Below, piece after piece: positions 1 through 32,319 of a stretch of DNA of 34,939 nt. Numbering within the stretch: the stretch's first letter is position 1; every line of letters begins with the position of its first letter. The notes beneath the pieces are model-generated. The model searched no databases. It was given only the letters and a program-made list of their open reading frames with translations, and was not told where the DNA came from. The stretch is from a virus (Duplodnaviria; Heunggongvirae; Uroviricota; Caudoviricetes): IMG/VR virus record IMGVR_UViG_2541047957_000002, one strand, 5' to 3'. Both the position numbers and the translations under genes were made by a program.

Positions 1-1032
1 TCAAAAACTTGCTATTGATGTTGGTAGTGTTGCCAGCGGATTAAACCGTAATGCAGTTTCCAGGTGATCCGGTGCCAGATGTGCGTAACGCATAGTCATT
101 TTTATGTCGTGATGTCCGAGGATTTTTTGCAAAGCAAGGATATTTCCACCCGACATCATAAAATGCGCCGCAAACGTATGGCGCAGAACGTGTGTCAGTT
201 GACCGCGAGGGAGCACGATAGACGTTTTTTCCATCACGGATAAAAATTGAAAATAGCAGTCTGTGAAGAAATTGAACCCATCAAGCGCCATGATCTCTTC
301 GTAAAGCTCTTTACTGATAGGGATGCTTCTGTTTTTCTTCCCCTTCGTTCTTACAAAGGTAATTCGGTATTTGGTCACCTGTGAACGAGTAAGATTTACG
401 GCTTCTCGCCAGCGTGCGCCTGTGCTTAAGCATATCTTAACTACCAGTGCTAGAATTGGGTCCTGACGTTTGCAATCAGCCAGTAATTCAACAATCTGCT
501 CATGGGTAAGCCATGCCATCTCTTTTTCTGCGATGGTGAATTTTCGCATGTTCTCCAGTGGGTTCGGATACGACCATTCGCCCAGACGGGATAGTTCGCT
601 AAAAACACTACTTAGATAGCTTTGCTCCAGGTTAATGGTGACCGGGCTTGCTCCTTTCTTCCATTTCTCGCTGAAGTAGATCTCGCCTGTCAGGCGTTTA
701 TCTCGATAGTGGGCAAACATTTTAGAGGTGAGATCGGTTGCAAGAGGATTGCCCAGAGCGTCAACCATCAGCAGCAATTTGTCATAGACATGCTGCCCAG
801 CAGTCAGAGATTTACCATGTAGTTTGAACCATAGCTCAACCACGTCTTTCAGGGTTCGACGATCCACTGATTCGCCCAGCCATGGCTTTGATTCGGTTTC
901 TTCCATAGTGTGACGCTCAAAAGCCAGAGCTTCGCCTTTGGTGGCGAATTGTTTACGCACACGACGCCCACTTCGTCCGGCGGGGTAACATTCGCAAAGC
1001 CATTTCCCTGTGGTGAGTTTTCGTACTGCCAT
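1..1032 (-). CDS. int: Tyrosine integrase (P2 Int family)
   Basis: Six-frame ORF 1..1188; C-terminal catalytic region HVLRHTFAAHF...MTMRYAHL (H-x-x-R ... Y). Start placed at the internal Met (MAVRKLTTGKWLCE...), which matches the P2-family Int N-terminus and has a GGAGGG RBS 8 nt upstream; the ORF could begin earlier at 1188. Confidence 0.88.
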   Translation of the reverse strand: MAVRKLTTGKWLCECYPAGRSGRRVRKQFATKGEALAFERHTMEETESKPWLGESVDRRTLKDVVELWFKLHGKSLTAGQHVYDKLLLMVDALGNPLATDLTSKMFAHYRDKRLTGEIYFSEKWKKGASPVTINLEQSYLSSVFSELSRLGEWSYPNPLENMRKFTIAEKEMAWLTHEQIVELLADCKRQDPILALVVKICLSTGARWREAVNLTRSQVTKYRITFVRTKGKKNRSIPISKELYEEIMALDGFNFFTDCYFQFLSVMEKTSIVLPRGQLTHVLRHTFAAHFMMSGGNILALQKILGHHDIKMTMRYAHLAPDHLETALRFNPLATLPTSIASF

Positions 1033-1063
1033 AAAAAATGCCCTCCAGTAGAGAGCATTTTTA

Positions 1064-1079
1064 CTGTATGTATAACCAG
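1064..1079. promoter_or_regulatory. LexA-box-like palindrome CTGT-N8-CCAG upstream of int (tentative)
   Basis: Sequence TACTGTATGTATAACCAGTG; same CTGT-N8-CCAG form as the uvrB SOS box. The second half-site is imperfect. Confidence 0.25.
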
Positions 1080-1220
1080 TGTCAATGTATGAAATCCTAC
1101 GACCATACATCTCACTGAAGCCATAATGAAGTTGGCTATTCTTTTTGCTATGTGAGCATGTAACTTTTGCGGTTAACCTGCGGCTCATTTTTATTTTAGA
1201 CGCAGATATAAAAGCAAAAG

Positions 1221-3927: not shown

Positions 3928-4781
3928 GCACCATCCTGAAATGGGCGGGAAATAAAACTGCCATTATGTCCGAACTGAAAAAACACCTTCCTGCTGGCCC
4001 GCGACTGGTTGAACCTTTCGCGGGTTCCTGTGCTGTGATGATGGAGACGGATTACCCCAGCTATCTTGTTGCGGATATTAATCCTGATTTAATCAACCTC
4101 TATAAAAAGGTTGCTGCTGATTGTGAGGCGTTTATATCTCGTGCCAGAGCTTTATTTGAGGAAGCAAACAGGGAGGTGGCTTATTACAACATAAGGCAGG
4201 AGTTTAATTACTCCACTGAAATTACTGATTTCATGAAAGCGATATATTTTCTGTATCTCAATCGTCATGGTTACCGTGGGTTATGTCGCTATAACAAGAG
4301 CGGGTATTTCAACATTCCCTACGGTAATTATAAAAATCCGTATTTCCCTGAAAAAGAAATTCGCGCATTTGCAGAGAAAGCCCAGCGGGCAACGTTTATC
4401 TGCGCCAGCTTTGATGAAACGCTGGCGATGTTGAAGGCGGGGGATGTGGTGTATTGCGATCCGCCGTATGACGGTACGTTTTCCGGCTATCACACTGATG
4501 GTTTCACTGAAGATGACCAGTATCACCTGGCATCCGTTCTTGAACATCGGTCATCAGAAGGACATCCGGTCATTGTTTCTAACAGTGACACATCCCTGAT
4601 CCGTTCGCTGTATCGCAATTTTACTCACCACTACATCAAGGCAAAACGCAGCATCGGCGTAGCAGCTGGTGAGAGTAAATCTGCAACAGAAATCATCGCT
4701 GTTTCTGGGGCGCGCTGCTGGGTGGGATTTGATCCTTCGCGTGGCGTGGATAGTTCTGCCGTGTATGGAGTGCGTGCATGA
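3924..4781 (+). CDS. dam: DNA adenine methyltransferase (Dam family)
   Basis: Motif I-like PFAGSCAV and catalytic DPPY ([10 protein letters not shown]). ATG at 3924 overlaps the upstream stop (ATGA), and its stop overlaps the A start. Confidence 0.85.
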
Positions 4782-7192
4782 GCCATGCTGATATGAACAA
4801 CTGCAGCGGCTTTAACGAGGCCGCCGCAGCATTCTCATGGAACAGCCCGAAAAAGGCTATTAACCCTTATCTGGACCCGGCGGAAGTTGCGCCGGTTTCT
4901 GCGCTTTCAAACCTGATCACTCTGTACGCTGCCGATAACGAGCAGGAACAACTGCGCCGCGAGGCACTGAGTGATCAGGTCTGGGAGCGTTATTTCTTTA
5001 ATGCATCCCGTGATCCTGTCCAGCGCGAAATGGAGCAGGATAAGCTCATTAGCCGGGCAAAGCTGGCGCATGAGCAGCAGCGTTTTAATCCGGACATGGT
5101 CATACTGGCGGACGTTAACGCCCAGCCTTCCCATATCAGCAAGCCGCTGATGCAACGTATTGAATACTTCAGCAGCCTGGGCAGGCCAAAGGCTTATTCC
5201 CGCTATTTGCGTGAGACGATTAAGCCATGTCTGGAACGACTGGAGCATGTACGCGACAGTCAGCTATCCACTTCTTTTCGCTTTATGGCAAGCCATGAAG
5301 GGCTGGACGGCCTGCTGATCTTGCCTGAAATGAGTCAGGATCAGGTGAAACGCCTGTCTACTCTTGTCGCTGCGCATATGAGTATGTGTCTTGATGCCGC
5401 TTGTGGTGATTTGTATGCCACCGATGATGTTAAGCCAGAAGAAATCCGCAAGACATGGGAAAAGGTGGCAGCAGAAACCCTGCGACTGGATGTCATACCG
5501 CCTGCGTTTGAGCAACTCCGCCGGAAAAGAAACCGCCGTAAACCCGTACCCTATGAACTCATTCCGGGTTCGCTGGCGCGTATGTTGTGCGCCGACTGGT
5601 GGTATCGGAAATTGTGGAAGATGCGTTGTGAATGGCGGGAAGAGCAGTTGCGTGCTGTTTGCCTGGTCAGCAAAAAAGCATCTCCCTATGTCAGCTATGA
5701 AGCCGTGATGCATAAACGTGAGCAGCGCCGTAAGTCGCTGGAGTTTTTCCGTTCTCATGAACTGGTGAACGAAGACGGCGACACGCTGGACATGGAGGAT
5801 GTGGTAAACGCCAGCAGCAGCAACCCTGCGCATCGCCGCAATGAGATGATGGCCTGTGTTAAAGGTCTGGAGCTTATCGCGGAAATGCGCGGTGACTGCG
5901 CCGTTTTCTACACCATCACCTGTCCGTCACGTTTCCATTCCACGCTAAATAACGGCAGGCCCAACCCGACCTGGACAAATGCGACGGTAAGACAAAGCAG
6001 TGATTATCTGGTCGGCATGTTTGCTGCATTTCGTAAGGCGATGCACAAAGCCGGATTGCGCTGGTATGGCGTGCGGGTGGCTGAGCCGCATCATGACGGC
6101 ACAGTTCACTGGCACCTGTTGTGTTTCATGCGCAAAAAAGACCGCCGCGCCATTACTGCATTGTTGCGTAAGTTTGCTATCCGTGAAGACCGCGAGGAGC
6201 TGGGTAATAACACGGGGCCACGCTTTAAGTCTGAGCTGATAAACCCGTGCAAAGGAACGCCGACTAGCTACATCGCGAAATACATCAGTAAGAACATTGA
6301 CGGGCGTGGTCTGGCTGGCGAGATCAGCAAGGAAACGGGTAAATCTCTGCGTGATAACGCTGAATACGTTAATGCCTGGGCGTCTCTGCATCGTGTTCAG
6401 CAATTCCGCTTCTTTGGCATTCCGGGGCGTCAGGCTTACCGTGAACTGCGATTGCTGGCTGGTCAGGCGGCAAGGCAACAGGGTGACAAAAAAGCAGGTG
6501 CGCCGGTACTGGATAACCCGCGCCTTGATGCCATTCTGGCTGCAGCTGATGCTGGTTGTTTTGCCACCTACATCATGAAGCAGGGCGGCGTACTGGTTCC
6601 CCGTAAATATCACCTCATCAGAACCGCTTATGAAATCAACGAAGAGCCGACCGCCTATGGCGATCACGGCATTCGTATTTATGGCATCTGGTCACCCATT
6701 GCAGAGGGTAAGATCTGCACTCATGCAGTGAAGTGGAAAATGGTTCGTAAGGCCGTTGACGTTCAGGAGGCGGCAGCCGACCAGGGCGCTTGCGCCCCTT
6801 GGACTCGTGGCAATAACTGTCCCCTTGCTGAAAATTTGAACCAACAAGGGAAAGACAAATCAGCTTATGGGGATACCAGAACGGACATTACCCGCATGGA
6901 TGACAAGGAGTTGCACGATTACCTGCACAGTATGAGCAAAAAAGAGCGCCGGGAACTGGCTGCAAGGTTACGCCTGGTGAAACCGAAACGGCGTAAAGAC
7001 TACAAACAGCGAATTACAGACCATCAGCGACAGCAGCTCGTCTATGAGCTGAAGTCCAGAGGATTTGATGGCAGCGAGAAAGAGGTCGGTTTACTCCTTC
7101 GTGGCGGCAGTATTCCGTCAGGAGCAGGCCTGCGTATCTTCTATCGGAACCAGCGTTTGCAGGAAGATGATAAGTGGCGGGATCTGTATTAA
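4778..7192 (+). CDS. A: Rolling-circle replication initiator (P2 gpA family)
   Basis: 804 aa; HUH-type motif [10 protein letters not shown] and tyrosine pair YIAKYISK; position at the end of the early operon. Confidence 0.9.
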
Positions 7193-7286
7193 TTACGCGG
7201 GTTAACAATTCGTGCTCTTAATAATACCAGGCATATCAGGCTGATGAACGTAAAAAAACGTTTTACATCAGTAAGATTATTATATA

Positions 7287-7302
7287 CTGTAAATATAAAC
7301 AG
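7287..7302. promoter_or_regulatory. LexA operator (SOS box) CTGT-N8-ACAG
   Basis: TACTGTAAATATAAACAGTG, a near-consensus LexA box lying in the promoter region about 45 bp upstream of ORF 7345 (strong AGGAGG RBS). Confidence 0.7.
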
Positions 7303-7344
7303 TGGTTATGTATACAGTATTGCTTTGGTGTCATAGGAGGAAAG

Positions 7345-7533
7345 ATGCAGGACTATTTTTTGGAGTCTTTGAAGCTCCAGCGCATTGATTTTTTTCTTAA
7401 GCTTGTAGCGGCTAGTGAGTGTAGTGATGAAGAGAAGGGGCTGGCCCTGCAGTGGGTTTCTGAACTAACAGATGAACTCATGGCAAAAATCAGAACCCAC
7501 GAATACAACCGCTCAATGGATGTCATCAGCTGA
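7345..7533 (+). CDS. Small SOS-operon protein, candidate Tum-like antirepressor
   Basis: 62-aa ORF with AGGAGG RBS immediately downstream of the LexA box; function inferred from position only. Confidence 0.4.
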   Translation: MQDYFLESLKLQRIDFFLKLVAASECSDEEKGLALQWVSELTDELMAKIRTHEYNRSMDVIS

Positions 7534-7543
7534 GGTGACTTTT

Positions 7544-7777
7544 ATGCGCATTGAAATAATGATCGATAAAGAGCAGAAGATTAGCCAGTCTACCCTGGAC
7601 GCTCTGGAGTCCGAGCTTTACCGCAACCTGCGCCCCCTGTATCCCAAAACGGTAATTCGTATCCGCAAAGGTAGCTCTAACGGTGTGGAACTTACCGGAC
7701 TGCAACTGGACGAAGAAAGAAAACAAGTGATGAAAATTATGCAGAAAGTGTGGGAAGACGACAGCTGGCTGCATTAA
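7544..7777 (+). CDS. DinI-family protein
   Basis: MRIEIMIDKEQKISQSTLDALESELYRNL...KIMQKVWEDDSWL resembles E. coli DinI (MRIEV...ETWESADDWF); GAGGTG RBS; second gene behind the LexA box. Confidence 0.75.
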   Translation: MRIEIMIDKEQKISQSTLDALESELYRNLRPLYPKTVIRIRKGSSNGVELTGLQLDEERKQVMKIMQKVWEDDSWLH

Positions 7778-7912
7778 GAAACGTTGCTGGCGTCTGAACT
7801 TGCTTCTGGCGTCAGCAAGGTTGAACAACGAGCCCTTGCGAGGCGTTAGCTCTGTAGTGCATGTCTATGCCGCATGAGATCGCATGATCGTTTGAGGATC
7901 GTTTTTGCTAAG

Positions 7913-7936
7913 GCCCGCCAGAACTGGCGGGCTTTT
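7913..7936 (+). terminator. Rho-independent terminator ending the SOS module
   Basis: Perfect hairpin GCCCGCCAG-aa-CTGGCGGGC followed by TTTTGCG. Confidence 0.6.
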
Positions 7937-8000: not shown

Positions 8001-8101
8001 CGCGCGCAACAGTGTAACAATCTGGATCTAATGTGATATAGTTACTGTAAATATTATTAACTATTCTTATATGCATTATTAAATATTTTAATGGAGCGTT
8101 T

Positions 8102-9775
8102 ATGGAAAAATATCAAGATGAGGAATATGTAGATGATTTAACTGAGCGTGTTTTTCTCATTAAGCAACAACTGGAAGCGGGAAAACTAAAAATAGCTCAT
8201 CATCTTGTAGAAGGTTTTATTGAAAGTTTTAAAAGAATAAGGCTGCGACAGGATGGTAAAGTTGACCCTTCTACTGTTGATGGCAGAATAAGGGCTATGG
8301 GAGCAGCGGTTAATCACTTTTTAGAAAGAGAAGATATAAAAAACAAATACTCTATTCAGGACTTGCAAAGTTCTTACTTTAATATTCTTTTTAGTAATTT
8401 TGGCGAGTTGTTTTATCTGATGAAAAAAACTAATGCAACGCCACATAAAGCATCAAGTTTTTTTTCTCAACAAGAAGAATATGTTAAGCAAATAGAAGAT
8501 ATTTTTCCTGAGTTATATAATCAGGTAATAGAGTTTTGGCAGGTAACATCCGATATTGGTGTAATACATTTGCAGGATGGTTCTCAGTTTAAAGCTAATT
8601 TTTCTGGTGACTTATTTCCTGCATTTGATGAGAATGCTGTCTCTATTGCAGGGTTGTATGTTGATACTATTTCACTTCCATGTCCTATATTAAGAGTCGG
8701 TCGTCTCTATGAAAAGTCAGATAAGGCTGAGTTTACAAGGATACTTCTGAAGCATGTCCTAACATGTATGACATATAAAGAAGTAGCGCTTGAAGATATA
8801 GAGCCAGCAATAGTATTAATTTTGCCGGATAGAAGAGATTTTGAAACTGAGAGCAAAAAAAATTTGATGAGTTTTTGTGAGCCTTATGCTCTGACTCATG
8901 CGCAATATCTCTATGATCGACGGTTCGAAAGCTACGATGAACTTCGAGATTTTAGTTATTCGATGAATGATATTGATGCTGTTCTTAAAAATATTAAGAG
9001 AGCAGATAGACTTATTTTTGATACAGCATGGGGGCTAAATCCAAAAACTCAATTAGAAAAACTACTATCTGATAAAAAAAGAATATCACGTAATGTTGTT
9101 GGTGATCATGCTGGAATGGAGGTTTTCCTTTCCTGCATTGGAAGAATGCCGCAAGCCTATTCAGCAAAATGTAATGCACAAGAACTTGGTAGTACTCCAT
9201 ATATAAATGCAGACACATCTTGGCTCTATTATACTTGGCTTATTGAGTACGAATCTCTTAATTTTGATGTCAATGATATTGAACTAAAAAATTTGCATAT
9301 GGTTCATGCGTTATCTGCTGGTATGCAAGATGGTTTTTCATGGTTAGGAAATGTACCGGTCAATAAAATAATTGAGTTGAGACGTAACAAATTGATGGAG
9401 GATGTAAGATCCATCTTATCAAATGGTGTTGACTCTTTAATCAATTCTTCGGCAGAGAGCTTTTCGAGGACAACGCAAAAAGTAATTGATAATGTAGACC
9501 GGGCTTTTATTGAACATCAAAGGATTCTTGCAAAAGCCCAAAAAGAGAAATTGAGAATTTACGGACTAGATGTCCTACCATGTATCGCAAATGGTGCTAT
9601 AGCAATTGCTGGAGCGCTGACTGGCAATACTACTTTAACGGCGTTAAGTGCAGGCCTTGGAGTAATAGGTATTCCGAGTATTAGTGATATCAAATCTAAA
9701 TTTAAGCAGAGGCAAGAGAAGCTTGATGCCTATCAACGTTCTGTTACAGGTATACTCTTTAGCCATAAATCTTAA
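8102..9775 (+). CDS. AT-rich orphan protein (557 aa), unknown function; candidate anti-phage/abortive-infection cargo with C-terminal hydrophobic Gly/Ala-rich segment
   Basis: Long uninterrupted ORF in a markedly AT-rich block (first 60 nt are 30% GC by count; flanking phage genes look far more GC-rich by eye) with RBS GGAG and its own downstream hairpin. C-terminal segment LDVLPCIANGAIAIAGALTGNTTLTALSAGLGVIGIPSI (about 9565-9685) looks like a membrane or glycine-zipper element. No Walker A or other motif recognised. Confidence 0.75.
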   Translation: MEKYQDEEYVDDLTERVFLIKQQLEAGKLKIAHHLVEGFIESFKRIRLRQDGKVDPSTVDGRIRAMGAAVNHFLEREDIKNKYSIQDLQSSYFNILFSNFGELFYLMKKTNATPHKASSFFSQQEEYVKQIEDIFPELYNQVIEFWQVTSDIGVIHLQDGSQFKANFSGDLFPAFDENAVSIAGLYVDTISLPCPILRVGRLYEKSDKAEFTRILLKHVLTCMTYKEVALEDIEPAIVLILPDRRDFETESKKNLMSFCEPYALTHAQYLYDRRFESYDELRDFSYSMNDIDAVLKNIKRADRLIFDTAWGLNPKTQLEKLLSDKKRISRNVVGDHAGMEVFLSCIGRMPQAYSAKCNAQELGSTPYINADTSWLYYTWLIEYESLNFDVNDIELKNLHMVHALSAGMQDGFSWLGNVPVNKIIELRRNKLMEDVRSILSNGVDSLINSSAESFSRTTQKVIDNVDRAFIEHQRILAKAQKEKLRIYGLDVLPCIANGAIAIAGALTGNTTLTALSAGLGVIGIPSISDIKSKFKQRQEKLDAYQRSVTGILFSHKS

Positions 9776-9781
9776 TGTAGA

Positions 9782-9809
9782 GGGCCGAGGTATTCGGCCC
9801 TTAGTTTTA
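9782..9809 (+). terminator. Rho-independent terminator of the AT-rich cargo gene
   Basis: Hairpin GGGCCGA-ggtat-TCGGCCC followed by TTAGTTTTA; overlaps the stop codon of Q on the other strand. Confidence 0.55.
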
Positions 9810-10835
9810 TATGAAACTGTATGGCATGAATTTTATTATGTCATCTTTGAGCCATTTATTGAGTTCTTCTATTCTGTTTTGTAGCGGTATCAATTCATTA
9901 CGCATAAAAACCTTACTAGCCTTCTCCACATCCCCAAATCCCCCAACATTATTCGGCATTATCCCCATCATTTGCGGCGGCACTCGGTGTGCTGCCATCA
10001 TGTCATCCCGGCTCACGTTCTTGATATTCAAAAATTCATCCTTTGCCGCGACTTCTGACAGAGGAATAATCTGAAGCCCGTCTTTTTTGCCGTTAGGCGA
10101 GTACATAAACAGGTTGCGGAAGTTGCCTGGACCTTTGGCGCTTTTCATCGCGTTACGGAGATTGTTTACATCTTCCTGGTTCTGCGCGGCGTCGGTCATG
10201 TACATGATGAAGCCTGCATGGCTGCCGTTGATGTAATACTTACGGCGGAACAGCGTGGCGGACTCGTTGAGCAGGGCTGACGGAATGGCAGAAAGATAAC
10301 CGGGCAGGCCGTAGATCTCCTGGTTGATATCTGGTTCCATCAGATGAAAAATGCTGCCTTTCGTGAACTGATACGGTTGCGTGGTCATACCGTATTGCAC
10401 AAACCAGTAGGTATCCAGGTCTAACCCGCGTCGGGTATATTTTGCCAGGGCAGGCTCAAGAGCGATAATTTCACCGAACCGGTTCGTGCGTTTCTCCAGA
10501 TAGGCGTTACCAAATACCAGATAGTCCTGCACAAAACGTGAAAAAGCCTGCTGGCTGAGCAGCGGGTGAGGGATGTAGGTGCTGGTCAGAATGTTGCACT
10601 TTACTGCAATCGGGGAACTATGATGAACGGCAGCGCGGAAGGTGCGCGCCAGTCCGTCAAAGCTGACGGGCGGCTCATACCAGCGGTCCATCTGTACGCA
10701 TTCCACATAATCCAGCAGTTCTCGGCGGTCCAGAACAGGAACGGGATCGCCGAAGCTGAATGCTTCGGCTGTAGTTTGACTTTTAAGCTGGATCTGTTTC
10801 GTCGCCGCAGCGCGGTTCTTCTTACTCTTTCCCAT
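9807..10835 (-). CDS. Q: Portal protein (P2 gpQ)
   Basis: 342-aa ORF in the conserved position and orientation next to terminase P (track begins at TTG 10838; ATG at 10835). Confidence 0.88.
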   Translation of the reverse strand: MGKSKKNRAAATKQIQLKSQTTAEAFSFGDPVPVLDRRELLDYVECVQMDRWYEPPVSFDGLARTFRAAVHHSSPIAVKCNILTSTYIPHPLLSQQAFSRFVQDYLVFGNAYLEKRTNRFGEIIALEPALAKYTRRGLDLDTYWFVQYGMTTQPYQFTKGSIFHLMEPDINQEIYGLPGYLSAIPSALLNESATLFRRKYYINGSHAGFIMYMTDAAQNQEDVNNLRNAMKSAKGPGNFRNLFMYSPNGKKDGLQIIPLSEVAAKDEFLNIKNVSRDDMMAAHRVPPQMMGIMPNNVGGFGDVEKASKVFMRNELIPLQNRIEELNKWLKDDIIKFMPYSFI

Positions 10836-12601
10836 CAAAAAAACTCCACAATATTGCTGGTATTGGCGGATTCGCCCTGCAGCGGTTCGTTAAACAGTGC
10901 GTGCATCGTTGCCCAGGCCAGATCGGCGTGGCTGGCTTCTTCGCTGCGGCTGGCTTCATAGGTCGGGCGGTTGCCACTGGCGGTGGTGGCGCGACGGATT
11001 GCCATAAAGGACTGCGCTATGTCGGTGTGTCCGGCGTCAAACTCCAGACGGCGGTGGCTGATAATGTCGTAGGCCTTGAGTACCAGGGCGTTTTTAACGT
11101 TGGGGTTGTAGACAAACTCCCGGACGGCAGGAAAAAACGCTTTCACGTTCTCGTAAACCCCGTGACCAACGCCGGTTGAGTCGATACCGATATAGGTCAC
11201 GTTGTACTGTTCGGTCAGTTTTTTGATGGCGTCAGCCTGGGCGCGGAAGTCCATTCCGCGCCACTGGTGACGCTCAAGAATGCGGAACTTACCGCCCGGC
11301 ACGGCTGGCGGCGCCACCACCACGCATCCGGCGCTGTCGCCGTTCTGCGTACCTTTCGCCGGGTCATATCCGATCCACACTTCGCGCCAGCCAAACGGGC
11401 GCAGGGCCAGTGCATGAAAGTCGGTCCAGACTTCCCAACTGTCCACCATGCACGCCTGCAGCTCGCTGAGTGGGAACACAGACGCGAGATCGTCCACGAA
11501 CTCACACATCAGCAGGTTCTGGTATTCGTCCGGGCTGTACTCCATGCGCAACTGGTCGAGGTCGAACAGGTTACAGCCGCCGCGCACCGCATCTTCCACA
11601 GTGACTATCTGGCGGTACTGCCCGTCTGCGCACAGCAGGCCGGGGGCCAGATTGCTGTGGGACAGGTCGATGTCCACCTTATCGGCTTTGTTGCGCCCTC
11701 GGTTGAACAGCGCACCGGACCAGAACGGATAAGCACTGTGTGTCAGGCTGGATGGCGTGGAAAAATAGGTTTGTCGCCATTTTTTGTGAATAGCCATACC
11801 GGAAGCCACTTTGCGCAGCTCCTGGAATTTCGGTATCCAGAAATATTCATCCAGATACAGGTTGCCGTGGTAACTCTGGGCCGTGCGGGCATTGGTGCCG
11901 AGGAAGTACAGCGTGGCCCCGTTAGGAAGCACCATCGGATCGCCTTTCAGCTCCACCTCCACTTCTTTGGCGAAGTCGATGATGTACTGCTTAAAGACGT
12001 GGGCCTGAGCCTTGCTGGCGGAAAGGAAAATCTGGTTACGCCCGGTTAGCAGGGCGTCAATCAGGGCTTCACGGGCAAAATAGAAGGTCGCGCCGATCTG
12101 GCGTGACTTCAGCAGGTTGCGGATGCGGTTGGTTTTTCCGGCTTCCCACCAGTGGCGCTGGTAGTTGAACATGGAGGAATGGAAGATTTCTTCCAGCTTC
12201 TCAATCTGTTCATCGGTGAAAACGTTCTTTTCCGGCTGACGGCGCGGGCCTTTGTTGCGGTTGGCGACGTTAGGGTTTAAGTCGGCTTCGTTGCCGCCAT
12301 TGTTAAACTTGCCGATCCGCGCATGGCGCTCCGACTGGCGCGCCAGCAGGTCAATCTCTTTGAAATCTTTCCCTTCTTTGTGCTCCTTCATAATGAGCTG
12401 GCAGTAGCGTGCGGCGGTGGTGAGCTGCATCTGATCCAGCGGCCCATAGTCACCCCACTTGTCGCGTTTTTTCCAGCTGTGAACGGTTGCAACTTTCTCG
12501 CCCAGCATTTCAGCAATGCGGGCTACGCGGTATCCCTGAAAGTACAGCAGCATGGCCTGCCGACGGGGATCGAGATCTGCGGGTGTCAGTGTGGTGTTCA
12601 T
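10835..12601 (-). CDS. P: Terminase large (ATPase) subunit (P2 gpP)
   Basis: 588 aa, divergent from capsid gene O, co-oriented with Q; P2-family terminase arrangement. Confidence 0.9.
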   Translation of the reverse strand: MNTTLTPADLDPRRQAMLLYFQGYRVARIAEMLGEKVATVHSWKKRDKWGDYGPLDQMQLTTAARYCQLIMKEHKEGKDFKEIDLLARQSERHARIGKFNNGGNEADLNPNVANRNKGPRRQPEKNVFTDEQIEKLEEIFHSSMFNYQRHWWEAGKTNRIRNLLKSRQIGATFYFAREALIDALLTGRNQIFLSASKAQAHVFKQYIIDFAKEVEVELKGDPMVLPNGATLYFLGTNARTAQSYHGNLYLDEYFWIPKFQELRKVASGMAIHKKWRQTYFSTPSSLTHSAYPFWSGALFNRGRNKADKVDIDLSHSNLAPGLLCADGQYRQIVTVEDAVRGGCNLFDLDQLRMEYSPDEYQNLLMCEFVDDLASVFPLSELQACMVDSWEVWTDFHALALRPFGWREVWIGYDPAKGTQNGDSAGCVVVAPPAVPGGKFRILERHQWRGMDFRAQADAIKKLTEQYNVTYIGIDSTGVGHGVYENVKAFFPAVREFVYNPNVKNALVLKAYDIISHRRLEFDAGHTDIAQSFMAIRRATTASGNRPTYEASRSEEASHADLAWATMHALFNEPLQGESANTSNIVEFF

Positions 12602-32084: not shown

Positions 32085-32164
32085 CGCTGCCGCCATTTTG
32101 TCGCCATCGTTAAAAAGCAGTGCTTCTAACATCATGATTTTAAAAGGCATAAATTTCAGACAAC

Positions 32165-32207
32165 AAAAAACCCATCAACCTTGAACCGAAATGGCGGGGT
32201 TGATGGG
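32165..32207 (-). terminator. Rho-independent terminator (minus strand) downstream of ybjL, near the presumed prophage/host junction
   Basis: Stem CCCATCAACC ... GGTTGATGGG with an A-run on the plus strand, giving a T-run after the hairpin on the minus strand. Confidence 0.5.
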
Positions 32208-32319
32208 CTCCACAAAATGGGGACATCAAAGAAAAGCAGTGGCACTAATTAAGACTGATGCCCTGCGGAAAAGTTCTGCGGTTGTGCAAAAAAATTTCAT
32301 TTTCAGGGCAACTTCAGTT

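Follow-up and report, generated by a model that had tools for sequence, protein, structure and literature searches.

A likely split-tum SOS induction operon with a predicted double LexA operator in a Fels-2/186-like prophage

After DNA damage, RecA-stimulated cleavage of LexA derepresses SOS promoters. The p95-tum-orf97 unit of phage 186 lies directly after gene A and has a LexA-repressed promoter, annotated as TTCACA-18-TACTGT, in which the −10 hexamer is the first six bases of the LexA site. The CI repressor of 186 is inactivated by Tum and not by cleavage; by binding this repressor, Tum keeps it off its operators (PMC3121763). Tum is one protein, as an initial annotation of the DNA studied here had stated, with a length of 146 aa, and it looks like a fusion of an antirepressor with DinI (Lemire et al. 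2011, PMC3121763). The 186 record also lists a 76-aa truncated Tum from an internal GTG that “modulates SOS induction”, so a free DinI-like protein has a counterpart even in the fused form.

According to a passage of PMC3121763 that cites Bunny et al. 2002, tum is split by a stop codon in Fels-2 and PSP3. The same paper gives, second-hand from a personal communication, antirepressor activity for the upstream gene of PSP3. In the PSP3 annotation, tumA is “similar to 5' end 186 tum; UV induction of prophage” and tumB is “similar to dinI and 3' end of 186 tum”. The title of Bunny et al. 2002 names Fels-2 as the reason why a lexA null mutation is lethal. When Salmonella carrying Fels-2 was exposed to the mutagen MX, STM2727 was upregulated 5.5- to 14.8-fold, and STM2726-2727-2728 were flagged as induced (PMC2225428). 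A more distant parallel is found in the dinI-gfoA/gftA operons of Gifsy-1, -2 and -3, which are LexA-controlled and pair a DinI homologue with a small antirepressor that inactivates a non-cleavable repressor; they differ in that dinI comes first, the antirepressor and repressor belong to other families, and the prophages are lambdoid (PMC3121763). The module we describe is therefore not new in kind: it is an ordinary, described feature of Fels-2/PSP3-type prophages.

We analysed a stretch of 34,939 nucleotides (the window), all of which is a P2/186-like prophage. On the minus strand lie int (4-1032), a small lipoprotein-like ORF listed between int and cI, and the CI repressor gene (1428-2003). 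A separate LexA-controlled promoter, distinct from the tum-type unit, was noticed before int. The plus-strand early operon encodes an apl-like protein, cII (Pfam Phage_CP76), fil, DUF5347, DUF2732, a DksA-type zinc finger, a Dam-type methylase and the replication protein gpA (gene A, 4778-7192; Pfam Phage_GPA, E = 5e-127). The unit under study occupies the 70-750 bp after gene A; it starts 70 bp past the end of gpA and is transcribed in the same direction. Its features below are on the plus strand, except for the LexA boxes, to which no strand is assigned.

The initial annotation had assigned the repressor to the 186 type, and our analysis agreed. Along its entire length, window CI showed 32% identity to 186 CI (E = 7e-38), and it contained the Pfam domains Phage_CI_repr and Phage_CI_C. 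A Pfam domain scan of the protein found no S24 peptidase (autocleavage) domain, which fits inactivation by an antirepressor and not self-cleavage. Lambda-like induction, in which RecA would stimulate CI to cleave itself and a LexA-controlled unit would be unneeded, is the textbook default, and nothing specific to the window supports it. Against it stand the 186-type N- and C-terminal domains, the missing S24 domain and the kinship to a CI that Tum inactivates. CI autocleavage was rejected on the S24 result, and we give lambda-like induction almost no probability. CI is the presumed target of an antirepressor, and an antirepressor would be the route by which the early lytic promoter is released, since CI has no self-cleavage domain.

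We predict a promoter of the 186 p95 type at the start of the unit. The −35 hexamer TTTACA (7262-7267) is separated by 17 nt from the −10 hexamer TACTGT (7285-7290), which forms the first six bases of a LexA box (box 1, TACTGTAAATATAAACAGTG, 7285-7304). A generic consensus promoter scan of the window did not call this promoter. We assigned it because its layout matches that of annotated 186 p95 and is conserved in 37 related loci, with the −10 hexamer kept in all of them. Among the 20 relatives that carry two LexA boxes (see below), the mean information content of the −35 hexamer was 1.8 bits per position, compared to 0.75 for the spacer.

Box 1 has three mismatches to the consensus TACTGTATATATATACAGTA and is the sole match with three or fewer mismatches in the 34.9 kb; none of 100 shuffled sequences gave one. 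It scored 23.5 bits with a LexA position weight matrix, level with recA and uvrB, where the 99.9th percentile of the window was 2.2 bits. The matrix was built from E. coli LexA sites, and it ranks umuDC, recA and lexA in line with their published heterology indices. The initial annotation had described a near-consensus LexA operator at these positions that overlaps the promoter, and had proposed scoring it with such a matrix; both the operator and the overlap were borne out.

An intrinsic terminator at 7910-7936 closes the unit, as had been noted. It consists of a stem-loop (AAGGCCCGCCA-GAAC-UGGCGGGCUUUU, 7910-7935; −23.4 kcal/mol) followed by UUUU, and the surrounding 150 bp are 95% identical to Fels-2. 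A consensus terminator scan did not call it, because the T-run has only four T. A second strong hairpin (7780-7822, −23.1 kcal/mol), which has no U-tract, follows the stop codon of the DinI-like gene and lies inside a segment of ~80 bp (7778-7858) that has no counterpart in Fels-2. By comparison with t95a of 186, this hairpin may terminate transcription in part or help to stabilize the RNA. All elements listed in the initial annotation were found, at coordinates that were exact or within one base.

The first gene of the unit, here called tumA-like, encodes 62 aa (7345-7533). The strong ribosome-binding site that had been ascribed to it is an AGGAGG at 7335-7340, four bases ahead of the ATG and conserved in relatives. 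To characterize selection on the reading frame we compared 38 sequences, which yielded 11317 synonymous and 5912 nonsynonymous codon differences; the same comparison gave 1866 and 15556 in one of the other two frames and 1255 and 16023 in the other. This pattern indicates a real, constrained gene under purifying selection.

The initial annotation had proposed aligning both ORFs of the unit to 186 Tum. For the DinI-like ORF this succeeded with BLASTP. For the 62-aa ORF, pairwise BLASTP gave no alignment with either 186 Tum or PSP3 TumA, and a tblastn search of phages with the Tum N-terminus did not reach Fels-2 or PSP3; here the relationship to Tum emerged from profile methods. An HMM of diverse members of the 62-aa family matched 186 Tum residues 6-48 (E = 2e-10; best decoy, 0.5), and hhalign of the family against 186 Tum gave 95.9% probability (E = 5e-9, residues 3-44 of both). 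In PHROGs the 62-aa ORF belongs to phrog_698 and PSP3 TumA to phrog_1993, and the 186 Tum N-terminus matches both. Matched directly to PSP3 TumA, the family HMM gave E = 1.6, a remote relation. These profile matches support homology of the 62-aa ORF to residues 3-48 of 186 Tum, the N-terminal, putative antirepressor part.

An earlier large protein search had yielded near-identical sequences only, and the diversity used here comes from an exhaustive search of 1.84 billion protein representatives. This returned 66 relatives of the 62-aa ORF, almost all of them free-standing proteins of 55-75 aa. None of the 66 was a Tum-length protein with an N-terminal match, that is, a fusion to DinI. AlphaFold predicted a two-helix hairpin for the 62-aa protein (pLDDT 85.8), and a search for solved structures related to the family found none. 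The literature search found no experiment on this exact protein family. By analogy with 186 Tum and PSP3, the 62-aa protein would bind CI and block its binding to operators, and we refer to it as a presumed CI antirepressor.

The second gene (tumB, DinI family, 7544-7777) encodes the 77-aa DinI-like protein that the initial annotation had recognized. It matched Pfam DinI (PF06183) at 81.3 bits, compared to a cut-off of 24.2, over profile positions 1-63 of 63 (E = 6.6e-23). It corresponds to the C-terminal half of Tum (41% identical to 186 Tum residues 71-145, E = 3e-24), and its proposed alignment to E. coli DinI was also obtained, through the solved structure 1GHH (E = 2.7e-6). The protein keeps the conserved C-terminal W-E-D/E...W motif and is assigned to PHROG 189, “RecA filament binding protein DinI”. 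By analogy with E. coli DinI, this protein may bind RecA filaments and modulate their co-protease activity, and feedback on the SOS response, as had been suggested, is plausible.

The two genes are separate ORFs in different frames, as reported previously (starts at 7345 and 7544, offset 199). A GAGG ribosome-binding site for the DinI-like gene (7532-7535) overlaps the TGA stop of the upstream gene, which suggests coupled translation. Because 186 Tum is one 146-aa protein and the window ORFs lie in different frames, the pair could be read as a tum gene broken by a frameshift, in a prophage no longer inducible. We observed that relatives share a stop codon, then GGGG or GAGG, and then 9-13 nt to the ATG of the DinI-like gene, with all three relative frames represented and a stop present even in the in-frame cases. 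The two-cistron form is conserved in Escherichia, Salmonella, Klebsiella, Citrobacter, Enterobacter, Serratia, Pantoea and Tatumella; the 66 relatives from the exhaustive search included no Tum-length fused form; and Fels-2, which has the same split form, is in a group described as UV-inducible because of tum. Conservation of the stop, ribosome-binding site and gap in all frames points to a stable two-cistron design and not a frameshift. On these grounds the frameshift pseudogene was rejected, and its probability is negligible.

We compared the unit to its closest described counterparts. In Fels-2 (Salmonella LT2), STM2728 and a DinI-family gene follow gpA, and the DNA of the unit is 96.7% identical to that of the window. 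The 62-aa proteins differ at the last residue only, the DinI-like proteins are identical, and Fels-2 shares the promoter, the double LexA operator and the terminator region. The differences are few. In Fels-2 a third gene, STM2726 (243 aa), separates the DinI-like gene from the terminator, where the window has the ~80-bp hairpin segment; two or three central bases of the second LexA box differ (ATATGT versus ATGTAT); and the cargo gene past the terminator is not the same. BLASTP found no similarity between STM2726 and 186 Orf97.

PSP3 resembles the window in the position of the unit after gene A, in its two-cistron split, in a tumB that is a close homologue of the DinI-like gene, and in a LexA box that overlaps the promoter. 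Unlike the window it has a single box. Its TumA belongs to PHROG 1993 and not 698, the two being linked only via 186 Tum, and its CI has an extra N-terminal extension of ~100 residues. The 186 unit shares with the window its LexA-repressed promoter with the −10 in the box and its position directly after gene A; each of the two window ORFs is homologous to one part of Tum, and the CI proteins are of the same family. It differs in that the two parts are fused, there is a single LexA box, and orf97 follows a partial terminator. The window and 38 relatives yielded no homologue of orf97.

We identified a second LexA box, CAGTGGTTATGTATACAGTA, at 7300-7319 (box 2), which was absent from the initial annotation. 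It scored 15.4 bits, third best in the window, and covers about +3 to +23 of the predicted transcript. The 16-bp cores of the two boxes, CTGTAAATATAAACAG (7287-7302) and GTGGTTATGTATACAG (7302-7317), overlap by one base, and the second begins with GTG. This is the geometry of a colicin-type double operator, with two cores of the CTG-N10-CAG type and a one-base overlap. In colicins, double SOS boxes are bound by two LexA dimers, repression is very tight, and expression is limited to a small share of the cells (PMC2994835).

The second box was present in 20 of 37 distinct upstream segments. In these 20 relatives the part unique to box 2 had an information content of 1.65 bits per position, similar to box 1 (1.70) and above the adjacent leader (0.57); the same positions in the 17 single-box relatives had 0.58. 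Box 2 is therefore conserved as strongly as box 1, and the double operator is conserved in the enterobacterial clade. This conservation is consistent with cooperative binding of two LexA dimers to the predicted double operator, which, as published for colicins (PMC2994835), would tighten repression or delay induction.

We used 56 nt of the Fels-2 operator as a query and obtained matches in 1105 plasmid records, mostly of small, mobilizable plasmids. In the two matches examined, the gene that begins ~40 bp downstream encodes a cloacin-like tRNase bacteriocin in one case and colicin N in the other. The operator of these colicin/cloacin promoters has nearly the same sequence (TATACTGTA-ATA-AA-CAGTGGTTAT...TACAGT), and 38 of 42 bases match between the Fels-2 operator and the cloacin-like promoter. 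The colicin/cloacin units differ in that their downstream genes are unrelated, and the −35 region and leader are dissimilar. The colicin-type double operator is a modest addition to the known tum-type module.

To assess conservation of the unit we collected related loci with an alignment of seven sequences, which gave 38 Enterobacterales genomes, 37 of them with upstream sequence. In Escherichia, Buttiauxella, Serratia, Citrobacter, Kluyvera, Raoultella, Enterobacter, Lelliottia, Leclercia, Klebsiella, Pantoea, Tatumella, Erwinia and Izhakiella, gene A is followed by a 62-aa gene, and those relatives whose flanking sequence sufficed keep the gene order of 186, PSP3 and Fels-2. We found a LexA box 40-97 nt upstream of the 62-aa homologue in 37/37 loci and scored 18-28 bits in all except L041, where it is degraded (15 bits, distal CAG half-site lost). 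A 186-family CI lies upstream in most loci, usually about 5-7 kb away. The distance from the unit to the portal gene Q ranges from 0.8 to 5.0 kb, a variable space typical of a cargo hotspot. Several E. coli chromosomes contain the window unit at 100% identity, two E. coli phages match it at 97-98%, and 1144 of 5426 complete E. coli genomes (about a fifth) carry the unit.

The distribution of the two genes bears on whether the unit is mainly SOS-modulating cargo, a phage DinI whose small upstream ORF is a leader or is unrelated to induction. In RefSeq and PHROGs the DinI-like gene alone has a functional label, the small ORF being left as hypothetical or of unknown function, and deletion of the dinI homologue in Gifsy prophages did not affect induction, so DinI is separable from induction there (PMC3121763). 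We observed the opposite of what cargo would suggest: the 62-aa gene is present in 38/38 loci and degenerate only in L040 (ATA start, altered C-terminus), whereas the DinI-like gene is absent from 16/38 and truncated in two more. These data suggest that the small gene is the core of the unit and the DinI-like gene an accessory. Together with the purifying selection on the small ORF and its homology to the Tum N-terminus, they make the cargo reading highly improbable. The dispensability of the DinI cistron is a further modest addition to the known module.

Our data support the view, put forward in the initial annotation, that this unit is the likely induction switch, and each step that could be computed held. 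We consider it likely, with good confidence, that the unit is the split-tum SOS induction operon of a Fels-2/186-like (Peduoviridae) prophage and works as follows. In the lysogen, two LexA dimers would sit on the double operator and block the −10 hexamer, the start site and the ~20 bases at the head of the transcribed region, a step with strong sequence support. Upon DNA damage RecA would be activated, LexA would cleave itself and the promoter would fire, giving a predicted transcript of ~640 nt with two closely spaced cistrons. The 62-aa protein, judged by its homology, would then sequester CI and stop its binding to DNA, and the early lytic promoter would be released. The DinI-like accessory protein would probably modulate RecA filaments and so tune the SOS signal. 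Binding of LexA to the operator, of the 62-aa protein to CI and of the DinI-like protein to RecA is proposed here from 186, PSP3 and Fels-2.

We compared the divergence of the 62-aa protein to that of CI in 31 prophages. The median pairwise identity was 76% for the 62-aa protein (range 53-100) and 42% for CI (28-99). The two divergences were not positively correlated (Spearman −0.09), and the small protein was the more conserved in 97% of pairs. Relative to the window, 62-aa proteins were 63-100% identical where the CIs were 29-89% identical. One locus (L028) pairs an 84%-identical 62-aa protein with a 186-like CI (60% identical to 186 CI, 29-30% to window CI). The absence of co-divergence with CI is unexpected for a specific binding pair, and it is our main reservation on the mechanism. 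It suggests either a docking surface common to the whole CI family or a target other than the one that analogy suggests.

Two readings follow from this reservation. In one, the 62-aa protein is LexA-controlled and Tum-related but acts mainly on a target other than the cognate CI, or it is a generalist that acts on many heteroimmune CIs or on another conserved partner. The uncoupled divergence and the L028 pairing favor this reading. The 62-aa protein is nonetheless homologous to the antirepressor part of Tum, and in almost every case the prophage that carries it also encodes a 186-family CI. The CI N-terminal domain, moreover, has many residues that are invariant across these prophages and could form a common docking surface, so that CI is still a possible target. 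We therefore regard this reading as unlikely. The other reading, which we offer tentatively, keeps CI as the target: the 62-aa protein may be a generalist antirepressor that docks on a surface common to 186-type CI proteins, kept silent by the double operator barring strong or sustained damage.

For the split-tum induction operon as such, the finding matters little, since prophages of this common type are expected to have such a switch for induction. What we add is modest: the double operator, the dispensable DinI cistron, the absence of co-divergence between the 62-aa protein and CI, and an SOS-controlled int promoter. The finding has value for annotation, since the 62-aa gene is labelled hypothetical although it is carried by so many complete E. 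coli genomes, and it very probably decides whether these prophages respond to DNA-damaging antibiotics. If the 62-aa protein is a generalist, one SOS-induced copy could induce co-resident heteroimmune P2-like prophages. The double operator, the conserved antirepressor and the LexA-controlled int promoter may bear on the induction threshold of P2-like prophages and on cross-talk between prophages.

The promoter of the 62-aa tumA-like gene (7345-7533) overlaps an A-rich inverted repeat, GTAAAAAAACGTTTTAC (7245-7267, plus strand), at its −35 hexamer. The A-run of this repeat is nearly invariant across the related loci, and the repeat might act as an UP-like element or as a binding site. At the other end of the gene, we observed a weak hairpin, GTCATC-AGCTGA-GGTGAC (7522-7539, plus strand; local fold about −9 kcal/mol), which covers the stop codon of the 62-aa gene as well as GAGG, the ribosome site of the downstream DinI-like gene. 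As judged from sequence, the hairpin is compatible with translational coupling of the two genes; it may also be fortuitous, because the sequence there is not conserved among relatives. Many distant members of the 62-aa protein family (P0147, P0149, P0152, P0155, P0172, P0177 and P0181) carry a C-terminal tail, K-N/S-P-Q/R-x-G-G-...-G-G-x-x-L/F-Q. The 62-aa protein in the window does not have this tail.

The interval from the tum terminator to the portal gene Q (9807-10838, minus strand) holds a single cargo gene of low GC that encodes 557 aa (8102-9775, plus strand). Searches of Pfam and PHROG returned no match for this gene, and its match to the PADLOC model "DitB" was weak (E = 3e-9, 34 bits). 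In relatives, the cargo site is between 0.8 and 5.0 kb long; in this variation it resembles the hotspot for cargo or defence genes known from P2-like phages. Upstream of the cargo gene we found a palindrome, ATAGTTA-N12-TAACTAT (8040-8066), that starts with the LexA-like half-site TACTGTAAATAT.

The gene for the host small RNA RybB (32162-32240, minus strand; Rfam, 105 bits) is located close to the window's right end. The prophage therefore appears to end immediately before RybB, with host flank included in the window.

The window contains a second strong LexA box, TACTGTATGTATAACCAGTG (1062-1081, within 1030-1098, minus strand; 23.1 bits), which is separate from the tum operator. On the int strand it takes up the 17-nt spacer between the hexamers of a good promoter (TTGACA-17-AAAAAT), and the int start codon is ~30 nt downstream of it. 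A terminator-like hairpin followed by a T-run (GCTCTC-TACTG-GAGGGC-ATTTTTT, minus strand) separates the −10 element from the int ATG. This element contains the int ribosome site, and the left arm of its hairpin contains the predicted transcription start of the int promoter. The layout is retained in two diverged int alleles, in loci L044 (90% identical) and L040 (78% identical). The second int type (~52% identical), located directly next to the repressor gene cI, does not have it. The arrangement of promoter, LexA box and hairpin suggests, at the sequence level, that read-through from the cI operon would stop before int, and that int would be expressed only from the LexA-repressed promoter.
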